Positions 11,888-63,729 are shown, numbered from the stretch's first letter. The stretch: DNA of 64,000 nucleotides from Candidatus Moraniibacteriota bacterium (GCA_026396275.1 JAPLXC010000005.1:1615-65614); one strand, 5' to 3'. Translations and numbers: made by a program. The notes: generated from the sequence alone by a model not told the origin.

Positions 11888-13309
11888 TTACAAATTTAAT
11901 GTCCGCAACTCCACCGTGGTCTGTTTTTCGTAAGATGGAATTCGACTGGGAAAAAACTTGGGCCAAAAGTCAACTTCAATCCTCTCGATCTGAGGATAGT
12001 TTTTAAGCGTGTCTTTAATCTGCTCTTCATTCTTGCCCAAAAGATCTTTTTTCAACTGCTCAAGATTCAGTTCGGGATTTAAAATAATTTTCCCGTGGAC
12101 TTTGATCTTGACAATCCGGGCGCTAAAATCGGGAGAAATGTTCCCGTACTCAACTTGAACGGCTACCGGAGCAACTGACTCATTTTCTTCGGATTTTTGC
12201 CAAAATACTCCTGTAATTATTTTCTTAGTGTCGTCCTCTGAAAACGCGATTGCTCGGGCGGTAACTTTTATGTAATAATCAAAATTATCTTTCAGGTCTC
12301 CAACCTTTGCCGCGGGAGCCGCATCTTTTATTTCCTGTTCCAGCGCTCCCGGCAGAAGAATGTATCCGGCCGGAAAATCTTTTTTCAATTCCTCTTCCAG
12401 CTGGGCTTTAATTTCTGTTTCCGCCTTGCGCTTTGCCTCGTCAATATCCTGCTGAGAAACGATGGGAGTCGCAGTCCCTCCTGATCCGCCACTAGTCATT
12501 GGCTTTGTAGAGCGAGCGTAAAATTTTTCGTACTTGGGACCCCCCTCAAATCCGGGGATTGAAAACTCTGAAAGGCCAATGTTATAGGACTCTCCCGACT
12601 CATCCGCTATGACTTCCGCTTCAATCGCTCCTGGTTGGGCCTTGCCCTCCACTGAAGTCATTCCAGGCACAGTTACTCCCTTAACTAGGCGAAAAAGTTT
12701 TCCGTCTGAAGAAAGAAGGCGGGTAGTAGCTACAAGCGGCTGGGAAGAATTGCTATATTCATTGTAAATTACCACTTTCCCCCGAGCTTTCTGCAAAGAA
12801 GAAGCGCTTTTTCCGGTTGTCTGATAAGACACTGTAAGTTCCTTCTCTTTTTCGGTTACCTTTATGGGAATTGTCTGGGACTGCATATCCGCCTCGGAGC
12901 GAGCAGCATCTCCCGTTATTTCCAGATCCATTTCCTGGATCTTATGGCGGGGGTAGATAATAACTTTTGAGCGCGGAATAAATAAATACGCGGCCACTCC
13001 TGATCCGGCAAATAAGCATATAGAAATGAATATCACCAGAAGCTTTTTGGCTTTTCTAGAAATCGGCTCGGAAAGGCGCTCATCGGGTTTGGCAGTTTTT
13101 TTGGAAACCGGTCCAGTAACAGGCGTCTCGGACTCAACAGCTTTTTTGTCAACTTGAAAAAAGCTCTCTAACTTTTTTTCCTTTTGAGGACTGAGTTTTC
13201 TCTCAAACTGAAATCCTTTGGCAAGAGGAATATTTTCCTCGATTCTCTTTCCTCCAGAAGAAACAAGCACGTCATTTATAGCCGGGCTTCTCCTCGGAGT
13301 AGGCGCCAT
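11888..13309 (-). CDS. hypothetical single-pass membrane protein (473 aa)
   Basis: Track ORF with one TM helix (LLVIFISICLFAGSGVAAYLFI). No known family. Confidence 0.4.
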   Translation of the reverse strand: MAPTPRRSPAINDVLVSSGGKRIEENIPLAKGFQFERKLSPQKEKKLESFFQVDKKAVESETPVTGPVSKKTAKPDERLSEPISRKAKKLLVIFISICLFAGSGVAAYLFIPRSKVIIYPRHKIQEMDLEITGDAARSEADMQSQTIPIKVTEKEKELTVSYQTTGKSASSLQKARGKVVIYNEYSNSSQPLVATTRLLSSDGKLFRLVKGVTVPGMTSVEGKAQPGAIEAEVIADESGESYNIGLSEFSIPGFEGGPKYEKFYARSTKPMTSGGSGGTATPIVSQQDIDEAKRKAETEIKAQLEEELKKDFPAGYILLPGALEQEIKDAAPAAKVGDLKDNFDYYIKVTARAIAFSEDDTKKIITGVFWQKSEENESVAPVAVQVEYGNISPDFSARIVKIKVHGKIILNPELNLEQLKKDLLGKNEEQIKDTLKNYPQIERIEVDFWPKFFPSRIPSYEKQTTVELRTLNL

Positions 13310-13317
13310 TTCCTTGC

Positions 13318-13824
13318 TTATTCTCTCCTGGCCCGGTCTTTGCCTTTCGGTAGCCGGACCGCGCCGATTGCCTTCTTGGCTGATTTTCCGGTCTTATCTT
13401 CCTCTTCGTCGAAAAATTCTTGAGAGCCGATATTTTCCAGTCTTTCCCGCTTATCGACTCTTCTGACGGAAATTTCCTTCCCGCCGGTTAACTGCTTGCT
13501 GGCAGAAAGCAAAGTCAAATTCTCATCTTTCTCGCGAGCAGTCTCCAGTCCGTCTAAGTTCGAGCGAACCATTATTCCGACTTTGCGAGCCAGCGTCTCG
13601 CCGGCTTCATCTTGAGTGACAAAAACAATCTGCTTTTTTAACTTTTCTGCTTCCTTCTTAAGTATTTTTAAATTTACAACACTTTGCAAGACCATCGCTC
13701 GTTTGGGAACAACAAAAAAGTTTTCGCTCACCTTGGATTTTCTAAGGCGATCAACTAGGGAAGTAATTTCTTCATCGCCGCCGATGTATAATAACTGGTG
13801 CATAAATTTCCTTAATGTTGGCAA
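13318..13824 (-). CDS. hypothetical protein (168 aa)
   Basis: Track ORF tightly spaced with its neighbours. Confidence 0.4.
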   Translation of the reverse strand: MPTLRKFMHQLLYIGGDEEITSLVDRLRKSKVSENFFVVPKRAMVLQSVVNLKILKKEAEKLKKQIVFVTQDEAGETLARKVGIMVRSNLDGLETAREKDENLTLLSASKQLTGGKEISVRRVDKRERLENIGSQEFFDEEEDKTGKSAKKAIGAVRLPKGKDRARRE

Positions 13825-13871: not shown

Positions 13872-15137
13872 TTAGTTCTGAATGGATTGCACAGCCCTTC
13901 TTAAAATTCCGGCCATTACTTTTTCCTCCCCCGCGATATCCAGAGTCAAATTGGCCAGCCCCATCGGAGTCACATCTTGCGGACTGCGAAGCTCTCCCGT
14001 GCTGTCAATAATCCGGACCACGTCCCGGGGCTGTAAAAAATTTACCGCCGGTGCTTTAGCGAAAGGAAGGTTTTTCGTCCACTCCTTTGAGGAAAGTATC
14101 TTCCGAATACCCGGCAGAGCTGATCCTCCTCCGCAGAGCAAAATTTTTGAAGGCAAAACATCGGAACCGGCGAATTCCTCCAGTGAAAGCTCGACGCCGC
14201 TCAGCCAAACCAGATAATCATTCCTCAAAATCTGCTCGATTTTCAAACCGACATCAGCGCCTAATTTCCCTTCGGAGTATTTTATTTTGAGTACCTCGGC
14301 TTCGTCAAAACTGACCCCCAGTTCCTGGGCAAGCCGTTTGGTAAAAGCTATCCCGCCGAGAGCAAACATTTTTGTCCCTTCCAGGCCTCCATTGCGAACA
14401 ACAGCAATGTCCGTCGTTCCGCCGCCCATATCAATGAAAATAGCGCTAAAATCCAGAATGTCTTCATAATCCACTGATCGGGCAACAGCGTATGGCTCCG
14501 CCACTATGCTTAAAAGGTTGATTTCTAATTCATCGGCAATTGTCTGAAGGGCGCCCAGATGAATCATTGGCGCGTAAGCATTAAAAACGCTTATGGAAAC
14601 GTCTTTCCCTTGAAAGCCGGAAGGATTAGTTATTTGATAGCCATCAATTCGCGTGTCAACAATGGCAGCGTTAATAAGACGCACCTCGATGTCATTCTGT
14701 CCTGTTTCCCAAGCCAGCTGTTTCTGAATCCGTTCAAATGCCTTAACTTGGACTTTTTGGATAATGTTTTTCAGTTCTGGAAGATCGATCTTCGCTTCCG
14801 GATTGGCCCGCTCGTAATGAACAGTGGTGGTAGTGCCCTTTACCAATTCTCCGGCAATGCCGACAATGGCTTTTTTTATCTTTTTTACTCCCGCCTGCTT
14901 GAGAGCCGCGCTGATCGCCTCCTGGCAAGTGGCGATTACTCCACTTATGTCCGAGACCGCTCCGCTTTGCATGTTTCCGTGTTTCTGGAACGCCTTTCCC
15001 ACTCCGATAACTATTCCTTTCACTTCCTCTGAATACAATTCAAAAACCAGCGCTTTAACCACCCCGGTGCCGATGTCCAGCGCTAAAACTAAGTCGGAAT
15101 ATCCTTTGCCCTTAAAAATTTTCGAAAGAAAACTCAT
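13872..15137 (-). CDS. ftsA: FtsA/PilM-family actin-like ATPase
   Basis: LALDIGTGVVKALVFE phosphate-1 motif and an actin-like fold over its length; 421 aa fits FtsA. Confidence 0.65.
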   Translation of the reverse strand: MSFLSKIFKGKGYSDLVLALDIGTGVVKALVFELYSEEVKGIVIGVGKAFQKHGNMQSGAVSDISGVIATCQEAISAALKQAGVKKIKKAIVGIAGELVKGTTTTVHYERANPEAKIDLPELKNIIQKVQVKAFERIQKQLAWETGQNDIEVRLINAAIVDTRIDGYQITNPSGFQGKDVSISVFNAYAPMIHLGALQTIADELEINLLSIVAEPYAVARSVDYEDILDFSAIFIDMGGGTTDIAVVRNGGLEGTKMFALGGIAFTKRLAQELGVSFDEAEVLKIKYSEGKLGADVGLKIEQILRNDYLVWLSGVELSLEEFAGSDVLPSKILLCGGGSALPGIRKILSSKEWTKNLPFAKAPAVNFLQPRDVVRIIDSTGELRSPQDVTPMGLANLTLDIAGEEKVMAGILRRAVQSIQN

Positions 15138-24053: not shown

Positions 24054-24192
24054 AGGTTTTTATTATGAAATTACTTAGCCATTATAACATTTGGCTTGAA
24101 AAATTCAAATTCCCGAAGCCACGCTTCGGGAATTATTTTCCACTCCGGGAACTGCTATCTGCGATCCGCGTTCATCCGCACATAAATCTGCG

Positions 24193-27100
24193 TTAATCCG
24201 TAGTTTTAACTATCCACCAGCTAAATTCTAATTCTTCATCAACTGTTTTTTCTACTTCAACTTTGAAACTTTCGCTTTCTTTTATTTTGGTAACAGCCAG
24301 GGGTTGTTTGGCTACTTTTTTAGCCGTGACAAAAATCTCACATTTATCCGTCACTGCCTTGGTTTTCACTGTCACGCTTTTCCCGTCGGATCCCGTCTCG
24401 TCGTCTTTGCCGTCTTCGTCTTCGTCTTTTTCCACGGGGAGGATTTTGGCAGTGCCAAGAGTTCTTTTTTCTTCATCAGAAACCTTGACGGTAAACGCTC
24501 CGGCTACTATTCCTTCCGCCTCTACCTTGCCCAAGACGCTGATGTCGCCGGGATTTTGCACCTGATCAATACCCAGAACCAGCTTAATGTAGTCAATATC
24601 ATTTTTATTGGCTTCCATCTGGGCGACATTCAGTTCCTGGTTAGTGAGCGCCTTCAGTTCGTCAATTTGGGCCTGGAGCGTAACCGTGAGATTTTCCAGA
24701 GCGGCAACCCGGCTTTCCAAGTTGCTGTTTTGGGCTTCCAAATCCACAACCTTATCTTGAACATTATTGATATTATCACTAACAATTGAGAGTTGTTCGT
24801 CCACCGAGGTCTGCAGTTCCGCCAGATTAGTGACGCTTTCGTCCGTCTTGAGAGCCAGTGTCTCCACATTAGTTGATATCCGCTGGTCTTCGGTTTGCAA
24901 TCCGCCGATTTGTGTCTGCTGCTCCTGCATAGACTTTACTATCAAGGGAGTCAGCTTGGAATAATCCACCTGCCAGTATTTGGTGTCGTTTTCGGGAATG
25001 GTGACGGCTTGAGGGTATACATCATATAACTCCTGGGCGATGACGCCGTAGACAATTTCTTTGGTTGGATCGGACTTGAAGTTGAACTGGCGGATTTGGA
25101 TATTCATCAAATTATTGATGCCGATGTTGGCCAGAGTGACGTTTTCCTTCAGCCGGACGTCTGAAGAAGTGTTGTAATAAGTCTGGGTGTTGTTGTAAGT
25201 GATGGATCCAACGGCGGTGCCGTCACCGTCGTTGAACTGGATCAAGGTGTTGGTTCCGGCGGGAGTGTCTTCACCGGCTTGGATGAGCAAACCGTAGCGG
25301 TCGGTGTTGTTGCCGTCATTGTAAAATTCGGCGGCGTAATCTGCGGAAGCGTTGTCATAAACATGAAGCGCCGCTCCAGGCCCCGTCGTCCCGATGCCGA
25401 CATTGCCGGCGAAATATGACTGGCCGCCGGCTGAATAAATCGCATAATTTATGGCGCTCCCCCTACTTTGGTTCTCCAAGTAAAAGCCGTAGTTGTTTGT
25501 TATTGGCCCGGCGCCTGTTGGATTGGGAATATATAGAGCATACCCATCTGTTATGGTTCCTGCTCCTTCATTATGAATAGCGGTATATGTACCATATGCA
25601 GCAGTTACGGCCCCGGTACTCATATTCCCGGCACGATTCCAACTACCGTATGCAGTTGTAATAGTACTGGATGACCAGTTATGAGATTTATTCCTTGCCC
25701 CATATGATGTGGTCACATTTCCTGCTCCTGCGTAACTATTGGCAGTATGAGTGCCACCTACTAAGTCAGTTACGGTTCCAGACCCATAGTGCAAAGCAGA
25801 GTGATCCGACCCTTCAAGGCGCGGGAAGTTCTGCGCATTCCCGCTCTGCGTTGCAACTTCAAAATTGGAACCATATGCTTCAGAGGAGGGTGCGCTGGAA
25901 GGGTTAAGCGTGAGTCTTAGATAATGGCCTATGACATAACTAGTGCTGAGACTCGTCAGTATATCTCGACTGTCAATTAACGTTAGCGATGATGCTCCAT
26001 CTATTGCTTTGTTTATGCCACTGTCGGAACCAATGGCCGCCCTTTGAGAGACGGTGAAATTCCCATTGACTTCAAGTTTTTCCACCGGACTCGTCGTCCC
26101 AATGCCGACATTGCCGCCCTCAAATATAGCCGAATAATTAGTTGTTCCTCCAGTGGCATTTACATAAAGTCCGCGGTTGACAGCCGAGGTTCCGTCCCAG
26201 GTTCCGGTTGATGTTACCGATAAGCCCGTTTTTGTTATCGAGGCGGTTGAAGATGTGGCCGTGTTGGTAAGAAGATTGCCTATGTAATCGGCGGTTTTAG
26301 ACCCGCTGGCTATGGTGTGTAAAATGGAAGTTGGTGAAGTCGTCCCGATGCCGACTTTACCACCGAAATAAGATGGATTCCCGTCTGCTGCATATAGCGA
26401 ATATCTGGCACCAGAACCAGAATTGGTGTCATTTTCAATATAAAGCGCGGCTGTGCCGTATGAAGGGGATGTATCATTAGTCAGAATAAACTCACCAGCA
26501 TAATTAACTGACGCGTTACTGCCAACAACACTAAGAGCTTGTCCTGGACTCGTCGTCCCAATCCCCACAAGGCCATTGGAATTAATCACCAATCTATCAT
26601 TTGTCCCCAGAGCCGTGGTGGAAATCTTGAATTTGTCCGAGTCGGAATCGTCCACACCCATAGTGAATTTTACGGAAGGGGTGGCACCGACGCGGAACTG
26701 GAGAGAGGGATCGTAGGTGGTATCAGAAAGATTAGTGAGAGTTAATACCGGATTGGCGTCAGTGTCTTGGATTTCAAGAAGAGAGGCCGGACTCGTCGTC
26801 CCAACGCCGACGTTGCCGGCGAAATAGGACTGGCCGCCAGCCGAATAAATGGCGTAGCTGGTGGTGCCAAAGGCCTGGTTCTCAAGATAAAGGCCGTAGT
26901 GAGTGCCAATCGAGCCATTAGAGTAAGGAGAACGAATATAAAGACCATAGTCAGTCGTGACTGAAGAACCAGCCCGGTAGGCGCCGCTTCTGATTCTGGC
27001 TCCGTAATTGTTGGTGACTGTGCCGTCAGTGGCGACATCAAGGTCAATGCCATAGTTGTTGGTAATAGAACCTAAATTTGAAGCGTTATAGATGCAGGAA

Positions 27101-28344
27101 TAAACATATAATCCCGTCATCTCTCTGACATCGCCTCCTCCGACCGAAGTGGCCCATATAGTACCGCTGGTAAGATAATCTATTGTTCCGCTTCCATAAT
27201 GATTCGCTCCCGCTCCCAGTGCAGAGACGAAAGCAATATTTTTAGTATTGCCGGAAGGAATTTGGGTTTCAAAGTAGGCGCCGGTAGCTCCTCCCCAATC
27301 TGCTCCGGTCAGATCAATGGTCGGATCAACTTTGATAGTAGAATTGAGAGGATTCCAATATTTATAAGTGGAGAAATCAGTCAGGGTTTGGGAAAAATCA
27401 AAAAGTAAAGGCCAGTCCCAGTCATTCGTCACTCTTCCCATCGCATCATTGCCAGCCGAGATCCGGCCGGTGGCGACAAAATCGCCACTCACCGTGAGCT
27501 TGGCTAGAGGAGAGGTAGTCCCGATTCCCAGCCAGTCGTTGGTGTCATCCCAGTACATTCCGGAGAAGGCCGTCCAGGAGCCGGCGTTATTGTAGAGCAT
27601 CTGGCCTTCGGTGCCGTTGGGGAGTGAACCGCCGCCGGAGAGATTAGTTGTTCCCCAGTAAAGATTTCCGCCGGAGTTGTAAAGCGTGGCAGTGGTAGTT
27701 GAAGGAGCGGCGTCATTGAGATAGATTCCGGCCGACCCTCCGTCTGTGCCTTGGACGTGAAGCTTATTAGAAGGAGAAGAGGTGCCGATGCCGACGTCGC
27801 CTTGAGCAACCAAGTTCCCGTCAGAAGTGATGCCACTGGCGGCATAGAGAGTATTAACGGTGAGGTCAATGTCGTCGTCAATGTCTTCGTTTTTAATGGA
27901 TTCGTTTTTAATTTCGCGGGAATCCACCGCTCCGGTGATAATCCGGACAAGGCCGTTGGATTTGATCTGGATGTCTCCGGTTTTGTATTTTGTCGTTCCG
28001 TCTTCGGAGATGACCGGGGTGAAGATTATTCGGGAAAGGATTCTATCGTTTTGTGAGGAGGGATCAAAATAAAGGGTATCGAGAGTATTATCGTTAGAGG
28101 CCATACCTCTTAGAGTTGTTGATGTTAAGAGAGGTGCTGTCTCTTGATTGGATTCTTCTCCGAGGATATTTTCGTTGCTGTTAGTATCCAGACTGTTAGT
28201 ATTCAGCTCTTTCTGGAGATATTGGAAAAAAACAAAAAAAATAATCAGGATTATTATGAGGAATATCAAAATCATTCTTCCGGGGAAGGAAAACCGGGAT
28301 GATGGCTGGGGAGAATTTTGGGAATGCGGATATGAAGAAATCAT
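24193..28344 (-). CDS. giant repetitive surface protein with phage tail-fibre-like C-terminal intramolecular chaperone (peptidase S74-like) domain
   Basis: 1383 aa with an N-terminal TM/signal region and many GN(V)GIGTTSP-type repeats. NTSSDVRLKENV...GVIAQELYDVYPQAV matches the tail-fibre chaperone/endosialidase auto-processing motif. A C-terminal coiled coil follows. Confidence 0.7.
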   Translation of the reverse strand: MISSYPHSQNSPQPSSRFSFPGRMILIFLIIILIIFFVFFQYLQKELNTNSLDTNSNENILGEESNQETAPLLTSTTLRGMASNDNTLDTLYFDPSSQNDRILSRIIFTPVISEDGTTKYKTGDIQIKSNGLVRIITGAVDSREIKNESIKNEDIDDDIDLTVNTLYAASGITSDGNLVAQGDVGIGTSSPSNKLHVQGTDGGSAGIYLNDAAPSTTTATLYNSGGNLYWGTTNLSGGGSLPNGTEGQMLYNNAGSWTAFSGMYWDDTNDWLGIGTTSPLAKLTVSGDFVATGRISAGNDAMGRVTNDWDWPLLFDFSQTLTDFSTYKYWNPLNSTIKVDPTIDLTGADWGGATGAYFETQIPSGNTKNIAFVSALGAGANHYGSGTIDYLTSGTIWATSVGGGDVREMTGLYVYSCIYNASNLGSITNNYGIDLDVATDGTVTNNYGARIRSGAYRAGSSVTTDYGLYIRSPYSNGSIGTHYGLYLENQAFGTTSYAIYSAGGQSYFAGNVGVGTTSPASLLEIQDTDANPVLTLTNLSDTTYDPSLQFRVGATPSVKFTMGVDDSDSDKFKISTTALGTNDRLVINSNGLVGIGTTSPGQALSVVGSNASVNYAGEFILTNDTSPSYGTAALYIENDTNSGSGARYSLYAADGNPSYFGGKVGIGTTSPTSILHTIASGSKTADYIGNLLTNTATSSTASITKTGLSVTSTGTWDGTSAVNRGLYVNATGGTTNYSAIFEGGNVGIGTTSPVEKLEVNGNFTVSQRAAIGSDSGINKAIDGASSLTLIDSRDILTSLSTSYVIGHYLRLTLNPSSAPSSEAYGSNFEVATQSGNAQNFPRLEGSDHSALHYGSGTVTDLVGGTHTANSYAGAGNVTTSYGARNKSHNWSSSTITTAYGSWNRAGNMSTGAVTAAYGTYTAIHNEGAGTITDGYALYIPNPTGAGPITNNYGFYLENQSRGSAINYAIYSAGGQSYFAGNVGIGTTGPGAALHVYDNASADYAAEFYNDGNNTDRYGLLIQAGEDTPAGTNTLIQFNDGDGTAVGSITYNNTQTYYNTSSDVRLKENVTLANIGINNLMNIQIRQFNFKSDPTKEIVYGVIAQELYDVYPQAVTIPENDTKYWQVDYSKLTPLIVKSMQEQQTQIGGLQTEDQRISTNVETLALKTDESVTNLAELQTSVDEQLSIVSDNINNVQDKVVDLEAQNSNLESRVAALENLTVTLQAQIDELKALTNQELNVAQMEANKNDIDYIKLVLGIDQVQNPGDISVLGKVEAEGIVAGAFTVKVSDEEKRTLGTAKILPVEKDEDEDGKDDETGSDGKSVTVKTKAVTDKCEIFVTAKKVAKQPLAVTKIKESESFKVEVEKTVDEELEFSWWIVKTTD

Positions 28345-28409
28345 TTCCTTTGGTGAAAATTTTTACTATTTGTCCGATTATGCTTTAATTTTACCAACTT
28401 TGGAAAAAT

Positions 28410-29651
28410 TTACAAATCCCTCTCTGTTTCTCCCTTTGTTAAAGGAGGAACTCTTATTTCCCTCTCGCTTCTGTTATCCACCAGCCGGAAAGCCGGATAA
28501 AGGGCGGAAAAAGCGACCAGCGCTGTCAGGAGGAAAATCGATTTAAGCGGAAAAATGAACAGAAAAGGCGTTGAAATAATGGCGGCTGCGATGTAAGCTG
28601 CCGCCCGCGAAGTCCGGAAAAAGTCAATGACATCTATGTCAGTGCTTTCAATCCTTTTATAAAAATAAGAATCGCGCAAAATTTCAACCAGTGACGCCCC
28701 GATTCTGGTGGCAAAAAGCACGAGCGCCCAAACGGCAACCGAAGTGGAGCTTATGAAGTAGACAGAAAATGTGGCGATTGCCATAACAATGAGAGAAAAA
28801 ATAATAAGTTCTTTCTCTCCGGTTTTTTTGTCGGCGATCAGTCCGGCCGGATATTGAAACAAGACAAACGGAACAAGCATCACGGTAAAGACAATTCCGA
28901 TTTGATCCCATCCCAAACCCAAGTTGCGAAGATAAATCGGCGTGTAAATCACCATCAGCGCATAGAAAAATTCAAGTACAAATGAGATGTAGTAAGCGCG
29001 TAAAACATTCTTTCGCAGGGACACTTTTTTTAAAATTTCCATTATGGTGGGGCGGTATTTCACGTTTTCTCTTAAATTACGCAGCCCTAAAAGAGCAAAT
29101 AAAAATATGAAAGAATAAAGGATAATTAAAAAAATAAAAATTCCATGAAATCCGAATTTGTCCAGGAGCCGGGTGGAAAGAAGCGGTCCGAAAACGTAAC
29201 CGGTGTTCATAATGGTAAGGTGCAGCCCCCGGATTCTTCCGGAAAATCGGTCAGTCGAGCAGGACTCCAGAATCATATCCAGCGCTACCCAGGCCAAACT
29301 GCCGGCAATGAGATATAAAATAAGCGGTATCAGGGCAAGAAAATTCGGAGGCAAAAAAACAAGTAATAGAATAATTGGAATTTTACAGAGCAGAATGAAA
29401 AGAAACGCCCGGGATCTCCCGTAGGCGGCGACGACTTTGTGAAAATTAAGAAGGATAATAAGCTCGATGGCGTAAGCGACTAAATAAAACACTCCGACAT
29501 TTTCCGTTCCCGAAATGTTCTTGAAGTACGTTGACAAAATGTAAATCAGGACTGCCTGGCCGAATCCCAATAAAAAAGAAATAAAACTGATCAGTTTTAT
29601 CTTTTCTTCGTTTAAGTGCTCTTTGTGAAAACAAAATTCGCTGTCGGACAT
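28410..29651 (-). CDS. MFS-family transporter
   Basis: About 12 TM helices. Confidence 0.7.
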   Translation of the reverse strand: MSDSEFCFHKEHLNEEKIKLISFISFLLGFGQAVLIYILSTYFKNISGTENVGVFYLVAYAIELIILLNFHKVVAAYGRSRAFLFILLCKIPIILLLVFLPPNFLALIPLILYLIAGSLAWVALDMILESCSTDRFSGRIRGLHLTIMNTGYVFGPLLSTRLLDKFGFHGIFIFLIILYSFIFLFALLGLRNLRENVKYRPTIMEILKKVSLRKNVLRAYYISFVLEFFYALMVIYTPIYLRNLGLGWDQIGIVFTVMLVPFVLFQYPAGLIADKKTGEKELIIFSLIVMAIATFSVYFISSTSVAVWALVLFATRIGASLVEILRDSYFYKRIESTDIDVIDFFRTSRAAAYIAAAIISTPFLFIFPLKSIFLLTALVAFSALYPAFRLVDNRSEREIRVPPLTKGETERDL

Positions 29652-33070: not shown

Positions 33071-33637
33071 CTAACTTGCGAGCAACGCCGCGGGATTGAA
33101 GTCGCTCCAGTCGTCGTCAAGCCAGCGGCCGTGCCAGTGCCACCTGCCGCCGTGCCAGTCGAGGTAACGGACGCTGAGGTAGCCAGTGGAGTCGCGATAA
33201 ATCGTTCCCCAAAAAAACACGTATTTGTCTTTCCATTCCTCAGGAATAAGGTGTGGATTGGCAAGTAGATAATCAAGGACGTTGGCGTTGAGAACTGGCA
33301 TTTTTTCCAATTCCTTGTGCAGTATGTTTCCCTCGATCACTTTTCTATCCCTTTGCTTCTTAGAAAGATAAAGTGAGATTTCTGTCGGATCCCACTTTAA
33401 CTGCCTGCCCTTTTTGTGCCTAATCACATTCCATCCGCTTGGGACGAAGGGATCCGCATCACAGTTGATTACATGGTCGATAAGCTTAATTTCTGCATAA
33501 CCAAGTATTACCTGACGAACTTGAGCAAGGATATCGCCCTCACTTAATTTTTTTATCTCTGCATTTGTCCAATCTCCGCGCCGAAACGCGGCTTTTAACT
33601 CCCCAGCCTGGTCAACATCGAGCATTATTTCGCTCAT
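33071..33637 (-). CDS. hypothetical protein with His/Trp-rich GC-rich C-terminal tail
   Basis: 188-aa ORF. The last ~40 codons (...WHGGRWHWHGRWLDDDWSDFNPAALLAS) are about 60% GC, against ~38% locally. Confidence 0.5.
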   Translation of the reverse strand: MSEIMLDVDQAGELKAAFRRGDWTNAEIKKLSEGDILAQVRQVILGYAEIKLIDHVINCDADPFVPSGWNVIRHKKGRQLKWDPTEISLYLSKKQRDRKVIEGNILHKELEKMPVLNANVLDYLLANPHLIPEEWKDKYVFFWGTIYRDSTGYLSVRYLDWHGGRWHWHGRWLDDDWSDFNPAALLAS

Positions 33638-55598: not shown

Positions 55599-56411
55599 TT
55601 AGTATTCTTGAAATTTTCCCCCCGGAAGATATTGCTTGATAAAGTTTTGAGAGTTATATACGTCGGCCTCGGCTTCCATTTCGACAATTTCCACCTCTCC
55701 TGGAAAGCTAAATGGCCACAGCAGGCGAAAGTCCCTTTGTTCGCGAGAATTTACCGTCCTCATATCTGTTGAATTTAAAGCCACCGGTTTTTTTCCAGAG
55801 TCCCTCAAAATCACATTTATTTTGATAAAGTTAAAGTCAAAAGGGCTGTCGTTTCGGAGCAGCCCATAGGCCTCACTGTATCCTACTCCTCCCGAAATTA
55901 GATTATAACGCTTGTTGTAAATGTCGAGTCGCGGCTTTTCGTAGTTCGAAAATTCCGCCCATTCAGTGCTCGCAATTATTACTTCCACTTCCTGGGGACC
56001 GACCGCCTCTAAATTGCTCTCAATAATATACTTCGTCTCCGCCGGAAGAATAAACCCTTTTCCGGAACGCCTGTCTATTTCTTTTCCGGAGGAATCCTTC
56101 AAAATAAATTCATAGGAAAAATCCGGGCTGCCGTACTCACTATTGGGATTTGATATTTTCGTCATTACATCATACCGGCCCGGCCCGCCGTAAATGAAAG
56201 CTTTTTCGGCAACTGCCAGCGGCTGCGCCATAAAAACTTTTTTGCAAGGGGCGCAAGGCCCGCCACAGTCAGTTCCCTCTTCTCTCTGATTTTTTTTCCC
56301 ATCAAAGCAGGTGGGAGCCGGTTTTGTCATTTGATAAATCAGCAGGCCAACAAGAAAAAAGATAACCAGGTAAACCGCGATAATAATAAGTCGCTTATAG
56401 TTTCGGGTCAT
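55599..56411 (-). CDS. membrane-anchored hypothetical protein with Cys-rich segment
   Basis: TM helix then CFDGKKNQREEGTDCGGPCAPCKK; the rest has no known family. Confidence 0.5.
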   Translation of the reverse strand: MTRNYKRLIIIAVYLVIFFLVGLLIYQMTKPAPTCFDGKKNQREEGTDCGGPCAPCKKVFMAQPLAVAEKAFIYGGPGRYDVMTKISNPNSEYGSPDFSYEFILKDSSGKEIDRRSGKGFILPAETKYIIESNLEAVGPQEVEVIIASTEWAEFSNYEKPRLDIYNKRYNLISGGVGYSEAYGLLRNDSPFDFNFIKINVILRDSGKKPVALNSTDMRTVNSREQRDFRLLWPFSFPGEVEIVEMEAEADVYNSQNFIKQYLPGGKFQEY

Positions 56412-56571: not shown

Positions 56572-56786
56572 GACTAAACTCACAATCTTGGCGACGGCCT
56601 ACTCTCCCCCCACACCAATTTCAACTACAGACCGCAATAATATTTCGCGTGCAAGTGAAGCGACTTCGCTTTCACAACTAAAATACCATAGCGACGTACC
56701 AAAAATTGGTGTGGGGGTACCATCGGGGCTGAAGTGCTTAACGGCCGAGTTCGGAATGGGATCGGGTGTACCCACTTCGCAAAAAT
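56572..56786 (-). rRNA. 5S rRNA with ~87-nt insertion in the helix IV terminal loop
   Basis: Aligned by eye to E. coli 5S. A 13-bp helix I (CAAUCUUGGUGAU / GUCGCCAAGAUUG), loop C CCGAACUC, ...CCGAUGGUA, then extended helix IV CCCCCACACCAA...UUGGUGUGGGGG enclosing ~87 nt, then GAGAGUAGG. Confidence 0.7.
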
Positions 56787-56982
56787 CACCAAGATTGTAA
56801 GTTCAGATCAAAATTTGAACTTCAAATTTATTTTAAGTAACTGCTAACTGCTAACTTGAAAAACGAGAAAGGTTTAATAGTTTATTAGTACTTCTTGGCT
56901 GAATCCCTCTCGGGACTTACACCTGAAGCCTATCAACCTCGTCTTCTTCGAGGAAACCATACCGCGCACAGCGCGGAAGTTC

Positions 56983-57273: not shown

Positions 57274-58042
57274 CACATATTCCCTTATTTCTAAGAGTGT
57301 AGACTATATCTTCATCCCCGATGGACATCGAGGAGCCGACGTGTTATAGCAACACATTTCCATATATTTTCCGTTGCTATCCTATCCCGCCTTGGCGGGA
57401 TAAAGTCGTTACGGGGTCAATCCTAAAATTTTTAGCAATTTTCTTTTGGTTCTTTTTTTCTTAGTAACATAATTTTCTTTCTGAATTTTCATCACGCAAT
57501 TAATAAGTTTAATGTAATCCTTCTTTTCAAGGTTCTTTTTACTAAGAATTTTTATAGCTTTTAATATTTCTTGGCACTGGATCTTTTTGAATTTAATAAA
57601 TGGCTTTAGTTTTTCGAGAATACTTTTTGCCTTATTATAGCCATTAATTCGTAGTTCGGTTATGCTATCATTTCTTCTGGAAATATAACCAATGCCGATT
57701 TTTTTCCTAATCCAGTACAAGGGTTTTTCGTGGCGCGAATCCTGATAAAAGCAAATAGTAACCATGAAGCGGCTTTTTCCATTGTCGCTTCGTTTTTTTA
57801 TTTGCAACATTAAGCTTCCATCGCCATCAAGAAAACCTGCAATATAAGCTAAATTAATTTTAGAACGACTTCCCACGGTATTATCTTAATTATTTATCCG
57901 GTCCTCAAGTAACTTTATCATATCACAAAATTCGCTGGACCGCAAATCATTTTGTGATCCCACAAACCGGAAAATAAATGAAGACTTCACCGTTATTAGT
58001 CGGATTTTCAATTCCGCTTGCGCGGAAAAGTAGCAATCTTCT
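57274..58042 (-). mobile_element. group-I-like intron in 23S rRNA at the sarcin-ricin loop (between E. coli U2656/A2657 equivalents), encodes a LAGLIDADG endonuclease
   Basis: Exon junction reconstructs CUCUAGU|ACGAGAGGACC. 5' exon ends in U and the intron ends in G. Shares blocks (AUCCGACUAAUAACGGUGAAG, AUACCGUGGGAAGUC) with the intron at 59118..59358. Confidence 0.7.
57409..57876 (-). CDS. LAGLIDADG-family homing endonuclease (intron-encoded)
   Basis: LAYIAGFLDGDGS motif near the N-terminus. 155 aa, single-motif type, inside intron A. Confidence 0.8.
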   Translation of the reverse strand: MGSRSKINLAYIAGFLDGDGSLMLQIKKRSDNGKSRFMVTICFYQDSRHEKPLYWIRKKIGIGYISRRNDSITELRINGYNKAKSILEKLKPFIKFKKIQCQEILKAIKILSKKNLEKKDYIKLINCVMKIQKENYVTKKKRTKRKLLKILGLTP

Positions 58043-58105: not shown

Positions 58106-58389
58106 CATATTTGTTCACTTATTACTAAGTGTATGGACTATAACTTAATCCTTTTTTATTTTGTACAAAATTAGGATTGCTAACATTTAGTCTCTACGGG
58201 TTTGTAATTATTTACAATTCCCTCGGTATTGTCCAAACATATTTTGGATTTTACCGAAATTAGTTAGCTTCTCTTTTAACATTACTGTTAAAAGCCGCCA
58301 TGAATGATGTCATTAAATATCCTCGGGTTCAAACAGTAAAATCTCCTTTAACTAAAAAGCTAATGAAGCTAATAGCTAAAAGCTGCTTT
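58106..58389 (-). mobile_element. group-I-like intron in 23S rRNA at the I-CreI-type site (E. coli ~2593; AACCGU|CGUGAGACAG)
   Basis: A 284-nt insertion in the invariant GUCGUGAGACAG segment. Intron ends in G. No ORF. Confidence 0.65.
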
Positions 58390-58453
58390 ACGGTTTGAAC
58401 CCAGCTCGCGTACCGCTTTAATTGGCGAACAGCCAAACCCTTGGGAGCTTCTC

Positions 58454-58493
<40 letters not shown>

Positions 58494-58720
58494 TCCTCCG
58501 TCGATATGGACTCTTGGGAGGAATAAGCCTGTTATCCCCGGGGTAACTTTTATCTGATGATCTTCCACCCTCCTATGAGGGATGGTCGGTTCACTAAATT
58601 CCACTTTCGTGACTGATTGACTTATGGGTCTTTCAGTAAAGCTGGCTTGTGCTTTTGCGCTACCGGCCCGATTTCCATCCGGACCTAGCCAACCTTAGTA
58701 AACGCCTCCGTTGCATTTTG

Positions 58721-58751
<31 letters not shown>

Positions 58752-59117
58752 AGGCACTGTTCCCAACCCGGTACCAATAACCAACAACTTACAACTCACA
58801 ACTAAAATAACATTAAAAGAAATGTTATCAGTTGTTTGTTATCAGTTAGTCATTAGTAACGGGTTAGGGTTAGAACTAAAACTTCAGCAGGGTGGTATTC
58901 CACTGTTGCCTCCATCCCGACCAGAATCGGGACTTCATCGGCTCCCACCTAAGCTCGGCAGCTAAAACTCTAATCCAATGCCAAGTTGTAGTAAAGCTCC
59001 ACGGGGTCTTTTCGTCTTGCCGTAGGTCGACGGCATCTTTACCGTCATTGCGATTTCACCGGGTCCTTCGTCGAGACAGTTACCAAGTCGTTACGCCTTT
59101 GATGCGGGTCAGAATTT

Positions 59118-59358
59118 CATTTTTGCTGTTTTGCTTTCGCAAACAATAGACTATATCTTCACCCCGATATTATATCGGGGGCCGACGTGTTACCCACAAT
59201 AATTGTGAGTCCAGATTAAATAAATAATCTGAGTCGTTACGGGGTCACTAGGACTTCCCACGGTATTACCATATCCTTCAAGGACTTAGGCTTCACCGTT
59301 ATTAGTCGGATTGCTCATGCCGCATTGCTGCGGCATTCAGGCAAATGTCTGACACTTT
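59118..59358 (-). mobile_element. group-I-like intron in 23S rRNA near E. coli position 1951 (CCUUGUCAGGU|AAAUUCUGACC)
   Basis: A 241-nt insertion. 5' exon ends in U and the intron ends in G. Homologous to intron A. No ORF. Confidence 0.65.
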
Positions 59359-59778
59359 ACCTGACAAGGAATTTCGCTACCTTAGGACGATTATAGTTAT
59401 CGCCGACGTTCACTGGCGCTTCGGGAACAAGCTTTCACCCGCTCCGTTAACGTTCCAGCACTGGTCAGGCGTCAGCCCCTATACTTCCCCTTGCGGGTTT
59501 GCAGAGACCTGTGTTTTTGGTAAACAGTCGCCTGGTAAACTTTCGCTGCGTCCCGCCCTTTTGGACTAAAATTTTAAGGCTTCATGAATTTTATTTTCAC
59601 AAGCTTAAAATTCATTCCCAAAAGGGCGGGAAAGACATTTCGCGAACTTACGTCTAGTTTTTTTGCCGAGTTCCTTAACGAAGGTTCTCCCGTTCACCTT
59701 GGGCTACTCGCCCAGTCCACCTGTGTCGGTTTTCGGTACGGACGCTGTTAGATTCGCTCGTATCGCGCTTCGCGCGAT

Positions 59779-59925
59779 ACATCGCTAAATTCAAAAATCA
59801 AAGTGCAAAATGCAAAATTAAGGAACTCGCTACACTCGTAATTTTTTATATTTTAAATATAAAATAATCAGTCGCGAAACGACACCAAAATTTTGATTTT
59901 TGATTTTTGCATTTTGAATTTGAGT
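59779..59925. repeat. AT-rich family-2 inverted-repeat element inside a 23S variable region (domain III)
   Basis: Arms CAAAAATCAAAGTGCAAAATGCAAAA / TTTTGATTTTTGATTTTTGCATTTTG, like 16187..16382. Confidence 0.45.
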
Positions 59926-61085
59926 GAGTATCACACGAAAGGTGATACGAACGACATAGAGGTTTTTCCTGGTAGCGCGCTCGTTCAGCTTCCCCTGATA
60001 AAATCAGAGTTCGCCGCGTTTCTTGAAGTAATGCCCTGCGGATTTGCCTGCAGAGCCCTCTTAAAACGCGGACGTTAATCCAATAAATCGCCTGAATTAC
60101 TGCACTACGTCACCTCATTTATAAACTAATAGCGGTGCCGGAATATTAACCGGCTGTCCATCGACTACGCCTTTCGGCCTCGCCTTAGGACCGACTAACC
60201 CTGGGATGATCGTCATTGCCCAGGAAACCTTGGACTTGCGGTGTGCCGGGTTTTCACCGGCATTGTGGTTACTCATGCCAACATTCTCACTTCCATAAAC
60301 TCCAGTCCGACTCACATCGAACCTTTGCTGCTTATGGAACGCTCTCCTACCGCCAATGCAAAGCATTGGCCCATATCTTCGGTACCATGTTTAGCCCCGT
60401 TACATTTTCGGCGCGAATCTTCTGGTCTAGTGAGCTGTTACGCACTCTTTAAAGGGTGGCTGCCTCTAAGCCAACCTCCTAGATGTATAAGAAAATTCAC
60501 TTCCTTTCCCACTTAACATGGATTTAGGGACCTTAGATGATGATTTGGGCTGTTTCCCTTTTGAGATCCGACCTTAGCGCCGGATTTCTGACTGCCTCGG
60601 TAAATATCGCAAGAATTCGGAGTTTGGTTGAGAACCCTGCGGCGAACCGCGAGTCCTCATTCAGTAGCTCTACCTCTTGGATACAATGTCGAGACGCTAG
60701 CCCTCAAGCTATTTCGGAGAGAACCAGCTATTGCCAAGCTCGGTTGGAATTTCTCCTCTACACACAAGTCATCTCCCAGTTTTGCACGGCTGGTGAGTGC
60801 GGGCCTCCCCCCGATTTTACTCGGGGTTCACCCTGCTCATGTGTAGCTCGCCTGGCTTCGGGTCTAGTCCGCGCGACACGCCTTGTACCACAATGGTACA
60901 AGGCAAAGCCCATTTAAGGCTCGCTTTCACTGTGCATATCCTCCAAAGGAGTTTATACAAGTCACGCAAAACTAACTCGTTGGCTCGTTCTACAAAAAGC
61001 ACGCAGTCACCCCGACTTGCGTCGGGGCTCCTACTCTTCGTTTGCATATGGTTTCAGGTTCTATTTCATCTCCCTCACCGGGATA

Positions 61086-61122
<37 letters not shown>

Positions 61123-62180
61123 ATCTCGCACAATATTTAGCCTTGGAAGATTAGTGCTCCCAGATTCAGACGGGATTTCTCCGGTCCCGCCCTACTTGAG
61201 AATAATAACCGTAAAGATGTTTTCTTTTTATGTACAGGGCTATTACCTTCTATGGCCGCTCTTTCCAGAGACGTTCTATTAAAAAAACATTTTATAACTC
61301 TACCTCCGCAGAATGTAACACGTTGAGAAAAATCTCAAGATGTTACAAACTCGGAGCGTTACCATCCCGCAACGCCGCAATCACCAAAGTAATTACGGTT
61401 TTGGCTTTTCCCCTTTCGCTCGCCACTACTTGGGGAATCACTATTGTTTTCTTTTCCTCCTGGTACTAAGATGTTTCAATTCCCAGGGTGCGCCATACGC
61501 ACCTATGAATTCAGCGCGTATTAATCCCGCCGAGGCGGGATTGGATTGCTCCATTCGGATATCCCCGGATCAAAGCTTGCTTGGCAGCTCCCCGAGGCTT
61601 ATCGCAGCCTGCTACGTCCTTCATCGCTTGTACGAGTCAAGGCATCCACCATATGCATGAGTAAACCTTTCTCTTTGTTAGCAGTTAGCAATTACTTAAC
61701 TTTAGCTAACTTTTTCTTAATTTACGACCTACTTAAAACTTACCACTTTTCACTGACTCATCTTTCCGCAAAACGCGAACAAGCCAATGACAGTTGGTTA
61801 AGACCTATTCAGTTTTCAAGGAGCGATTACTGCGGAAATAAATTAGAACAATATTATTCAAACTTATTTCAACACTAATCATCAACCTGTCACCCACTCA
61901 CCAGTTTCGAAAGCATTCTGGTGATTTCCTAAAACTGGATACACAGTCGCGCCTTCGGCTTGATCTGAAAAAATATTAAATATTGATAAAAACTGGTGAG
62001 GGATTTGTTTCTCTTATCAAAATCAAAGATTTTGAAGAGAAACAAAAAACCGCTTGTTCGGCGGGCTGTCTCCTCAAGAACAACTTAAAAATAAAGAATT
62101 TACCCGCTTCTTTTTCCAATATGCTTTTTTCGAATTGTCTTTACTATATGTTTGAAAAAATAATTAGTTAGTCAGTTTTC

Positions 62181-63156: not shown

Positions 63157-63729
63157 CTACCGATTCAGTTCTTTCTTGAATTCTTCATAAATCTTTTCCA
63201 ACACTCCCAGCTCCGGCTGGCCGTCAACTGACAAAACCTTCATCCGGGCCTTAAAAAGCCGTTCTTTGGCTTCATTCAAAGCCAGTCCTTCTTTTTCCGC
63301 TTCTAGAAAGATTAGAGAAATATCTCCCAGATAGTGAATAAACTCCTGGCATTCCTTGCAGTCCTTATACTTTTCCAGCAGTTTTTCAGTTACGGAATAC
63401 ACCTGGCCGATACTGGCATAAAGAGAGTGAAAGTCGTCATAGATCGCCCTGAAAACCTTATCGTCCACGCCGGTTTCCAGTGACATTAAATAGATTTCTT
63501 TTTTAATCAGATCCTCCTTTGTCTGATCATCACTCCAGCTTTTCACTCTGGCTTCAATAAAAACCTCCTCGGCTGACCGCAGGTAGTCAACAAATTCCAC
63601 CAGTTCTTGATAGGGACTGTACTTTTCCTTGAGTTTCGTGCTGATCAGTTCAATTTTTTCTATCTCCTTTTGCATCCGTACTTCCTTTTCATATTGAGAC
63701 GACAAATTTTCCGGTGACTCAATTGACAT
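63157..63729 (-). CDS. hypothetical protein (190 aa)
   Basis: Track ORF with no family recognised. Confidence 0.4.
   Translation of the reverse strand: MSIESPENLSSQYEKEVRMQKEIEKIELISTKLKEKYSPYQELVEFVDYLRSAEEVFIEARVKSWSDDQTKEDLIKKEIYLMSLETGVDDKVFRAIYDDFHSLYASIGQVYSVTEKLLEKYKDCKECQEFIHYLGDISLIFLEAEKEGLALNEAKERLFKARMKVLSVDGQPELGVLEKIYEEFKKELNR

Follow-up and report, generated by a model that had tools for sequence, protein, structure and literature searches.

The predator Bdellovibrio bacteriovorus possesses 21 fibres of the mosaic adhesive trimer (MAT) type, and in 13 of them the C-terminus is formed by an S74 domain that contains an SDxxxK motif (Caulton et al. 2024, PMC10769870). A signal peptide and a conserved β-rich N-terminal domain of ~130 amino acids (aa) are present in all 21 (PMC10769870). 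MAT fibres are located on the surface of the predator, contribute to prey handling and were established in 2024 as prey-recognition adhesins (PMC10769870). For one of these proteins (i.e. Bd3182), self-cleavage occurs at S782 and is abolished by an S782A substitution (PMC10769870; PDB 8OJN/8ONB/8ONC), and the tip is an intertwined trimeric β-helix with a capping-loop consensus of V-G-G/N-pi-x-x-P-x-x-x-L (PMC10769870). In the MAT survey table, 'predator-associated lifestyles' are listed for Oligoflexia, the PVC group, Alpha- and Deltaproteobacteria, the FCB group and Omnitrophica, and no member of the candidate phyla radiation (CPR) is included (PMC10769870). Here, we describe a fibre gene on the minus strand of a 64,000-nucleotide stretch from a Candidatus Moraniibacteriota bacterium (GCA_026396275.1, JAPLXC010000005.1:1615-65614). 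This whole stretch is termed the window, and positions are counted from its first nucleotide. The gene probably encodes a cell-surface, trimeric, S74-processed fibre that belongs to the bacterium itself (Candidatus Moranbacteria, Patescibacteria/CPR) and acts as an adhesin or recognition device.

How episymbionts of the CPR/Patescibacteria recognise and bind their host cells is largely unknown, with type IV pili being the main factor studied (PMC12206443). Full-text literature searches yielded no paper tying Patescibacteria/CPR to S74 or tail-fibre domain proteins.

A predicted fibre protein with a C-terminal Peptidase_S74 core

The gene and its chaperone core comprise the following features.

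24193..28344, minus strand: fibre coding sequence (CDS), complete, 1383 aa plus stop, ATG start (from the list of open reading frames, ORFs, and translation)
24955..25164, minus strand: Peptidase_S74 intramolecular chaperone core, aa 1061-1130 (from Pfam, a PDB profile search and AF2)
25162-25164, minus strand: codon of Ser1061, SDxxxK dyad
25147-25149, minus strand: codon of Lys1066, SDxxxK dyad

An earlier sequence-only reading had placed an ORF of 1383 aa at these coordinates. The length and coordinates stood, apart from the strand: the frame is crowded with stop codons when read on the plus strand, which was ruled out, and the gene occupies the minus strand of the sequence as presented. 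The NCBI entry identical to the full protein is titled 'MAG: tail fiber domain-containing protein [Candidatus Moranbacteria bacterium]' (MAG, metagenome-assembled genome) and derives from a 78-kb contig. Judged from its sequence, the product is a membrane-anchored, S74-terminated fibre protein.

A chaperone signature of the form SDxRLKxN had been noticed near the C-terminus, with a Pfam search for S74 proposed as the check. PF13884 (Peptidase_S74) matched aa 1061-1115 with 39.7 bits (gathering score 22; E 6e-10) over profile positions 1-58 of 58. The segment YYNTSSDVRLKENV carries the SDxxxK dyad as S1061-D-V-R-L-K1066, and the Ser and Lys of this dyad were invariant in an alignment of 23 diverse homologues (32-59% identical to the query). 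A profile of these homologues matched the solved structures of phage S16 gp37 (1.8e-14) and the MyRF ICA domain (1e-8), as well as the 8jov tail fibre, the T5 L-shaped fibre and phi29 gp12. The dyad motif aligned with SSDRRIK of S16 gp37 and SDERLK of 8jov.

An AF2 model of aa 1031-1383 had a mean pLDDT of 75.9, with values of 81-93 over the S74 core. The best PDB fold match of this model was the MyRF ICA domain (i.e. 7dc3_B), with a TM-score of 0.63 (target) and a root-mean-square deviation (rmsd) of 2.8 A over 115 columns at a weak E of 6e-3. Matches at E <= 1e-3 were also obtained to 208 predicted viral structures (~130 aligned columns at rmsd 2.3-3 A). Each match spanned no more than ~120-180 columns, covering S74 and in some cases the beginning of the helix that follows. 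The invariant dyad points to probable autocleavage at Ser1061.

Anchor, shaft and tip

N-terminal to the chaperone core, the protein consists of a candidate anchor, a membrane-proximal region and a long shaft.

28216..28275, minus strand: N-terminal transmembrane (TM) helix, aa 24-43 (Kyte-Doolittle 19-aa mean up to 3.16)
27832..28215, minus strand: lineage-specific membrane-proximal region, aa 44-171, 128 aa (BLASTP, Pfam)
25165..27831, minus strand: fibre shaft and tip, aa 172-1060, rich in G/T/S/A/N (composition, motif positions)
27772-27795, 27508-27531, 26788-26811 and 26545-26568, minus strand: capping-loop motifs GxVGIGTTSPxxxLxV 1-4 (pattern scan)
26332-26355, 26086-26109 and 25378-25401, minus strand: capping-loop motifs GxVGIGTTSPxxxLxV 5-7 (pattern scan)
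26764..27531, minus strand: large module A, aa 272-527, all-β with a ~20-aa xxYG sub-periodicity, paralogous to module B (BLASTP)
25354..26109, minus strand: large module B, aa 746-997, paralogous to module A (BLASTP)

The sole segment of the fibre protein exceeding a hydropathy of 1.6 was aa ~24-43, with R17 and R23 on its N-side, in keeping with the N-terminal membrane anchor that had been claimed. By the positive-inside rule, this helix is probably an uncleaved signal anchor with an N-in/C-out topology. The N-termini of homologues were either TM anchors or signal-peptide-like. The adjoining 128 aa exhibited BLASTP similarity to none of the 94 other proteins from the first homologue search and had no Pfam match.

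A motif of the form [VLI]G[IV]G[TS][TS]xP, usually found in the shaft as GNVGIGTTSPxxxLxV, started at aa 184, 272, 512, 593, 664, 746 and 982. These seven copies compare with a chance expectation of 0.0005 on average and 1 at most in 20,000 shuffles of the shaft, so that the GN(V)GIGTTSP...L motifs noticed in the sequence-only reading proved to be a real feature of the protein. The accompanying claim, of about 900 aa of degenerate repeats of ~60-70 aa, did not hold. Successive motifs were separated by 88, 240, 81, 71, 82 and 236 aa (i.e. 71-240 aa) and, in pairwise comparisons, the modules were alike over just 12-47 aa around the motif, with one large duplication excepted. Motif spacing and pairwise module BLAST thus ruled out regular tandem repeats of 60-70 aa and indicate a mosaic shaft with a recurring short motif. 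A self-BLAST of the whole protein returned the identity alignment alone and was uninformative on repeats. The exceptional duplication relates aa 272-514 to aa 746-984 (37% identity, 249 aa, E 2e-31), and BLASTP of module A against module B likewise gave 37% identity (E 5e-36). As module B adjoins the cleavage site, it is presumed to form the distal tip of the mature fibre. Tail-fibre families of PHROGs matched aa 578-1164 with E-values of 1e-20 to 6e-28.

These large modules bear on another possible function, in which the protein is a surface enzyme (i.e. a depolymerase or a tailspike-like glycanase or lyase) whose ~250-aa β modules act as catalytic β-helices on the capsule or wall of a partner or on a food polymer. 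S74 domains classically end endosialidases and tailspike depolymerases. The cleft of Bd3182 has been likened to the P22 tailspike (PMC10769870), module B was modelled as stacked β strands with likenesses to pectinase-like and LbH β-helices, all of which were non-significant, and the C-terminal model weakly resembled the C-terminal parts of Klebsiella phage depolymerases. However, no significant sequence or fold match to glycosidase or lyase families was detected (fold matches had E > 1) and no catalytic residues were identifiable, making an enzyme an unlikely interpretation.

The extension after the cleavage serine

Cleavage before Ser1061 would release a fragment of 322 aa, comprising the S74 core, a coiled coil of ~125 aa and a β domain, as compared to ~90-110 aa after the serine in most other S74 matches and a usual range of up to ~150 aa. 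Two features follow the S74 core.

24574..24954, minus strand: long coiled-coil extension, aa 1131-1257 (heptad score, AF2 helices)
24196..24573, minus strand: linker and C-terminal β domain, aa 1258-1383, core ~1290-1380 (AF2 pLDDT 85-92)

The heptad coiled coil already recognised by eye after the S74 signature was borne out by a heptad score of 0.61 in aa 1135-1225, as compared to 0.20 in the shaft, and by the long helices placed by AF2 over aa ~1128-1257 (model residues 98-131 and 144-227). A low-confidence acidic loop, DEDEDGKDDETGSDG (D-x-D-x-DG-x-DD-x-TGSDG), precedes the β domain, and the protein terminates in ...F(S/D)WWIV, the family form being ...FDWWIV. The β domain had no Pfam, NCBIfam or PDB sequence match, and the NCBIfam scan of the protein produced noise-level matches to coiled coils only.

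In at least 72 protein clusters (72 of 244 sequences), the module of S74 core, coiled coil and β domain was retained almost end to end and up to its last residue, each match beginning within 25 residues of the start of the C-terminal module of the query. Among phages, a tblastn search of 50,697 genomes gave 134 records, none of which contained the full extended module: no record covered 80% and most stopped at ~aa 130. Similarly, the full module was absent from the best 80 of >343 IMG/VR contigs with relatives, all of which matched residues 1 to ~128-150. Together with the ~30 residues that precede it, the S74 core was 40-49% identical to proteins of viral contigs, and this part was also matched in cyanophage and pelagiphage genomes.

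Relatives, paralogue and mosaic evolution

The first homologue search returned 95 proteins, most with PF13884. Proteins with a named source were from Moranbacteria, Parcubacteria, Paceibacteria, Kaiserbacteria and Omnitrophota, together with a small number of other lineages (Elusimicrobia, Anaerolineae and an archaeon) and one Hymenobacter. An exhaustive HMMER search, for which the last 343 aa served as the query, yielded 36,307 representative clusters at E <= 1e-3 and only 77 at E <= 1e-30. Genes of this type are less of an exception than the sequence-only reading had suggested: S74-bearing cellular proteins are very numerous, and automatic annotation already gives the class the name 'tail fiber domain-containing protein'. 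The clusters that had both a name and the full module were Parcubacteria or Patescibacteria 'tail fiber domain-containing proteins'.

Three homologues (i.e. P0004, P0018 and P0072) were found in cellular neighbourhoods, with ATP synthase genes (twice), ComEA/ComEC, TsaD/TsaE and a PilB-like ATPase; one of these loci consists of two S74 fibre genes in tandem. Tandem fibre genes were also present in loci L002 and L006-L009. No full-length orthologue was found, the closest relative being P0096 with 42% identity over aa 661-1380 only. Relatives retained the C-terminal module and had upstream shafts that were unrelated or patchily similar.

GTDB representative genomes were scanned with a 6-sequence alignment. 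The full module was detected in a Moraniibacteriota MAG, in 'Bacterium BMS3Abin15' and at four loci in three MAGs labelled 'uncultured Bdellovibrionales'. In genomes labelled Saccharibacteria, Paceibacteria and Patescibacteria, the match was restricted to the S74 part of the query, and most of these genomes have other long extensions after the serine (211-689 aa).

The loci labelled 'uncultured Bdellovibrionales' (i.e. L006-L009; the label could not be verified) encode the full module in giant ORFs of 1500-2300 aa. A second giant ORF follows directly and runs off the locus, with a length of at least 1000 aa in L007 and ~2000 aa in the others. Few ORFs were listed at these loci and a change of genetic code was considered; it was rejected on finding that the second giant ORF runs off the locus end. 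If the label is correct, the extended module is common to CPR and predatory bacteria. At a further locus, L016 (JACKFW010000001.1, a 1.08-Mb contig), the predicted S74 fibre is at least 2719 aa long, contains 12 capping motifs and continues for 689 aa beyond the serine. This contig is titled 'Pseudomonadales bacterium' yet has an isolate name containing 'PATE', and the label looks inconsistent.

A paralogue (P0002) is located on the same 78-kb contig, outside the window. It has at least 2331 aa, is partial at the contig end and also possesses the S74/coiled-coil/β module. Comparison with the fibre protein revealed patches of 77-94% identity amid a background of 20-43%, among them near-identical patches of 94% over 50 aa (26068-26217) and 81% over 57 aa (27625-27795). 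In 30-aa windows of the coiled coil, identity was 77-90% for aa 1131-1190 and 1221-1250 and 37% for aa 1191-1220. Over most of aa 1131-1340, identity was 67-90%, as compared to a drop to 20-43% in the S74 core. Such patchiness is a signature of segment exchange and suggests gene conversion between the fibre gene and P0002. The fibre family shows a mosaic pattern, with exchangeable segments and several paralogues in the same genome.

High paralogue identity beyond the S74 core also bears on whether the C-terminal 322-aa piece is itself functional, as a distal head or a released factor, with S74 cleavage acting as a release or activation switch. In MyRF, the best PDB fold match, S74 cleavage can separate two functional parts. 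The conservation of the extension to its last residue across clusters, the confident model of the β domain and its weak fold likeness to the terminal β-sandwiches of tailspikes and pyocin fibres all fit such a role. Conversely, the β domain matched no ligand-binding family, the paralogue identity may be due merely to recent gene conversion and, in every studied S74 system, the post-serine fragment assists folding and does not remain with the mature fibre (PMC10769870). A functional C-terminal piece of this kind is distinctly unlikely.

Transcription signals and genomic neighbourhood

Candidate transcription signals, which are consensus matches only, were found on both sides of the CDS.

28388..28415, minus strand: sigma-70-like promoter match TTGTAA-16-TAAAAT with an extended -10 (TG), upstream of the CDS (consensus scan)
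24108..24134, minus strand: intrinsic-terminator-like hairpin with a 12-bp GC-containing stem and T-rich tail, ~60 nt past the stop (consensus scan and sequence reading)

These promoter-like and terminator-like sites would be compatible with a monocistronic unit. A purine-rich AAGGAA directly abuts the ATG of the CDS; as this spacing is unusually short, the exact start of the protein is uncertain (i.e. M1 or M24). Both candidate starts come before the TM helix.

The neighbourhood was assessed from ORFs of the window of at least 100 aa, not every one, between ~9.4 and 63.7 kb. All of the Pfam-matching ORFs have cellular functions, and no phage, integrase or baseplate family was detected among the scanned ORFs. 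One side contains genes for ribosomal proteins S4/S11/S13, an FtsA-like protein, a PfkB kinase, enolase, PGK and MraY and then, nearer to the fibre gene, an S11 D-Ala-D-Ala carboxypeptidase, ScpB, ScpA and a YbaK-type tRNA_edit protein. Beyond the fibre gene are an MFS transporter, AspRS (AspS), a response regulator and LytB, followed by ProRS/HisRS-type synthetases, a signal peptidase, an LCP protein, Pth, DprA, TopA, RelA/SpoT, ParB and MetRS. Pfam thereby confirmed the housekeeping flanks (ybaK, MFS, aspS) named in the sequence-only reading.

This setting bears on whether the gene is left over from, or carried by, a prophage, tailocin or contractile-injection-system cluster, as a true phage tail fibre that happens to be chromosomal and is unused by the cell. 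The relatives of the S74 core and preceding residues on hundreds of viral contigs and in cyanophage and pelagiphage genomes, the matches to PHROGs tail-fibre families, and a G+C content and GC skew that differ from those of the flanks would all fit a phage gene. Set against them, phage, integrase and baseplate families are missing from the scanned ORFs, the gene is intact (1383 aa) with its own putative transcription signals and, in place of a virion-attachment domain, a predicted TM anchor, cellular settings are found repeatedly for relatives in Patescibacteria, and the extension is absent from the phage records and from the best-matching viral contigs described above. A prophage origin of this sort is very improbable. 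The proposal that the gene is host-encoded was supported by the cellular flanks, by its own signals and by the cellular contexts of relatives; the fibre gene is probably a cellular gene rather than part of a prophage.

Other features of the window were also recorded. The 23S rRNA gene (58333-61672, minus strand) holds an internal group I intron (59128-59368). A second group I intron match (58115-58316) lies just beyond the 23S 3' end and is followed by an ORF for a LAGLIDADG homing endonuclease (57409-57876, minus strand). Intron-bearing rRNA genes are common in CPR bacteria. Together with the NCBI label, the 23S gene and its group I introns indicate that the window belongs to the chromosome of a Moranbacteria (CPR) member. 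A 5S rRNA gene is located at 56686-56793 (minus strand), ~1.5 kb beyond the 23S. No 16S was detected in the window, protein-coding ORFs occupying the 2.3 kb that flank the 23S at its 5' end. Five ORFs of 168-473 aa had no Pfam match at E <= 1e-3 (i.e. 11888-13309, 13318-13824, 33071-33637, 55599-56411 and 63157-63729, all minus strand), the first two of which are directly downstream of an FtsA/PilM-like gene (13872-15137).

Discussion

The proposed fibre could be assembled as follows. After Sec insertion, the N-terminal TM helix would hold the protein in the cytoplasmic membrane with the remaining ~1340 aa outside. The S74 chaperone would then register three chains at the C-terminus, reinforced by the coiled coil and β domain, and the β-rich shaft would fold into a trimeric fibre punctuated by GxVGIGTTSPxxxL capping loops. 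Once the trimer had folded, the Ser1061/Lys1066 dyad would cut before Ser1061, freeing the C-terminal fragment. Module B (aa ~746-1060) would thereby be exposed as the distal tip, with which a fibre of perhaps some tens of nanometres in length would bind its ligand. The mature fibre would adhere to, or recognise, surfaces or partner cells, and the swapping of segments between paralogues of the same genome would create a mosaic repertoire. The domain composition, the conserved dyad, the cellular context, the distribution of the family and its mosaic pattern are observations, whereas trimerisation, autocleavage, surface exposure, adhesive function and target are points that we infer, ligand binding by analogy with MATs and phage receptor-binding proteins. 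The role as an adhesin, also suggested by the sequence-only reading, is supported by an experimental precedent not cited there, the Bdellovibrio MAT fibres (PMC10769870).

Several observations weigh against this model. The PDB sequence match to the Bd3182 tip (i.e. 8ojn_C, 'cell wall surface anchor family protein') was weak, with an E of 0.02, and essentially at the level of the motif. An AF2 monomer model of the tip (aa 740-1062) had an all-β core with pLDDT values of 70-85 and a mean pLDDT of just 63.8, and a fold search of the tip model against the PDB gave no significant match, returning non-significant β-helix proteins only. The G+C content of the fibre gene is 0.47-0.50, as compared to ~0.42 in the flanks, and the GC skew is about zero at 24-26 kb and positive at 26-30 kb (MFS gene included), as compared to negative over most of the window; the G/T/S/A-rich composition of the protein or a past horizontal acquisition may be the source of these shifts. 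Finally, a conserved coiled-coil and β extension of ~250 aa on a fragment destined for release is unexplained by a simple chaperone model. The extension may help very long fibres to trimerise by providing a stronger nucleus, may be conserved through recent gene conversion or may perform a separate function, whether as a cap, as a released factor or in retention.

A wider hypothesis arising from the extension is that CPR bacteria have domesticated the phage fibre/S74 toolkit as recombining, membrane-anchored host-recognition fibres in which the CPR-enriched C-terminal module is a second functional part that is freed or repositioned by self-cleavage. This second part could, for example, be a cap masking the adhesive tip until contact or a secreted trimeric factor. 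We regard this hypothesis as rather doubtful. If it is true, these fibres, together with type IV pili, decide which host an episymbiont attaches to.

The weight of these findings is limited by the abundance and automated annotation of the class, for which a function in this bacterium is proposed by analogy. This locus and its many relatives, including those in genomes labelled Saccharibacteria, are nevertheless candidate determinants of host specificity, and in their mosaic, recombining build these fibres are similar to phage receptor-binding proteins. The long module after the cleavage site is a defined and conserved feature, through which a further role for self-cleavage by S74 domains might come to light.

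Comparison with known systems

The predicted fibre is a CPR member of a recently characterised class, i.e. cell-encoded, S74-terminated, phage-like adhesive fibres, with a differing anchor and an extended post-cleavage module. Like the fibre described here, the Bdellovibrio MATs are chromosomally encoded, phage-like fibres of ~1000 aa; both have a C-terminal S74 domain with SDxxxK, a mosaic and swap-prone build and several paralogues per genome, and surface display, observed for the MATs, is presumed here. The Bd3182 loop VGVGTTAPTSALHV aligns with VGIGTTSPGQALSV of the Moranbacteria fibre, indicating a shared capping-loop motif, whereas sequence similarity to Bd3182 is insignificant beyond this motif and the S74 domain. 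Bdellovibrio lives by attachment to other bacteria, as the organism here, a member of the Patescibacteria/CPR, presumably does. The two fibres also appear to differ in their anchors, with a predicted TM helix here in place of the signal peptide and ~130-aa N-terminal domain of MATs. The combination of a TM helix and a 128-aa region without relatives suggests a different anchoring solution from that of the MATs. The fragment after the serine has 322 aa with a coiled coil and β domain, as compared to ~140 aa in Bd3182.

With phage fibres and tailspikes (i.e. K1F endosialidase, the T5 pb1 L-shaped fibre, S16 gp37 and phi29 gp12), the S74 core is alike by both profile and fold, and the β strands that precede it here ('LIQFNDGDG..VGSIT') are 40-49% identical to viral proteins. 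The proposed logic of C-terminal trimer nucleation followed by autocleavage would also be shared with phage S74 fibres. In contrast to these fibres, the protein has no virion context and has a predicted membrane anchor instead of a baseplate adaptor at its N-terminus, and the long coiled-coil and β-domain extension distinguishes it from the phage and viral sequences searched. The eukaryotic MyRF ICA domain provides the precedent of a cellular, membrane-associated protein with S74-type, trimerisation-dependent self-cleavage. In MyRF, a transcription factor is freed from a C-terminal membrane anchor, whereas the anchor here is N-terminal and the N-terminal product would stay on the cell.

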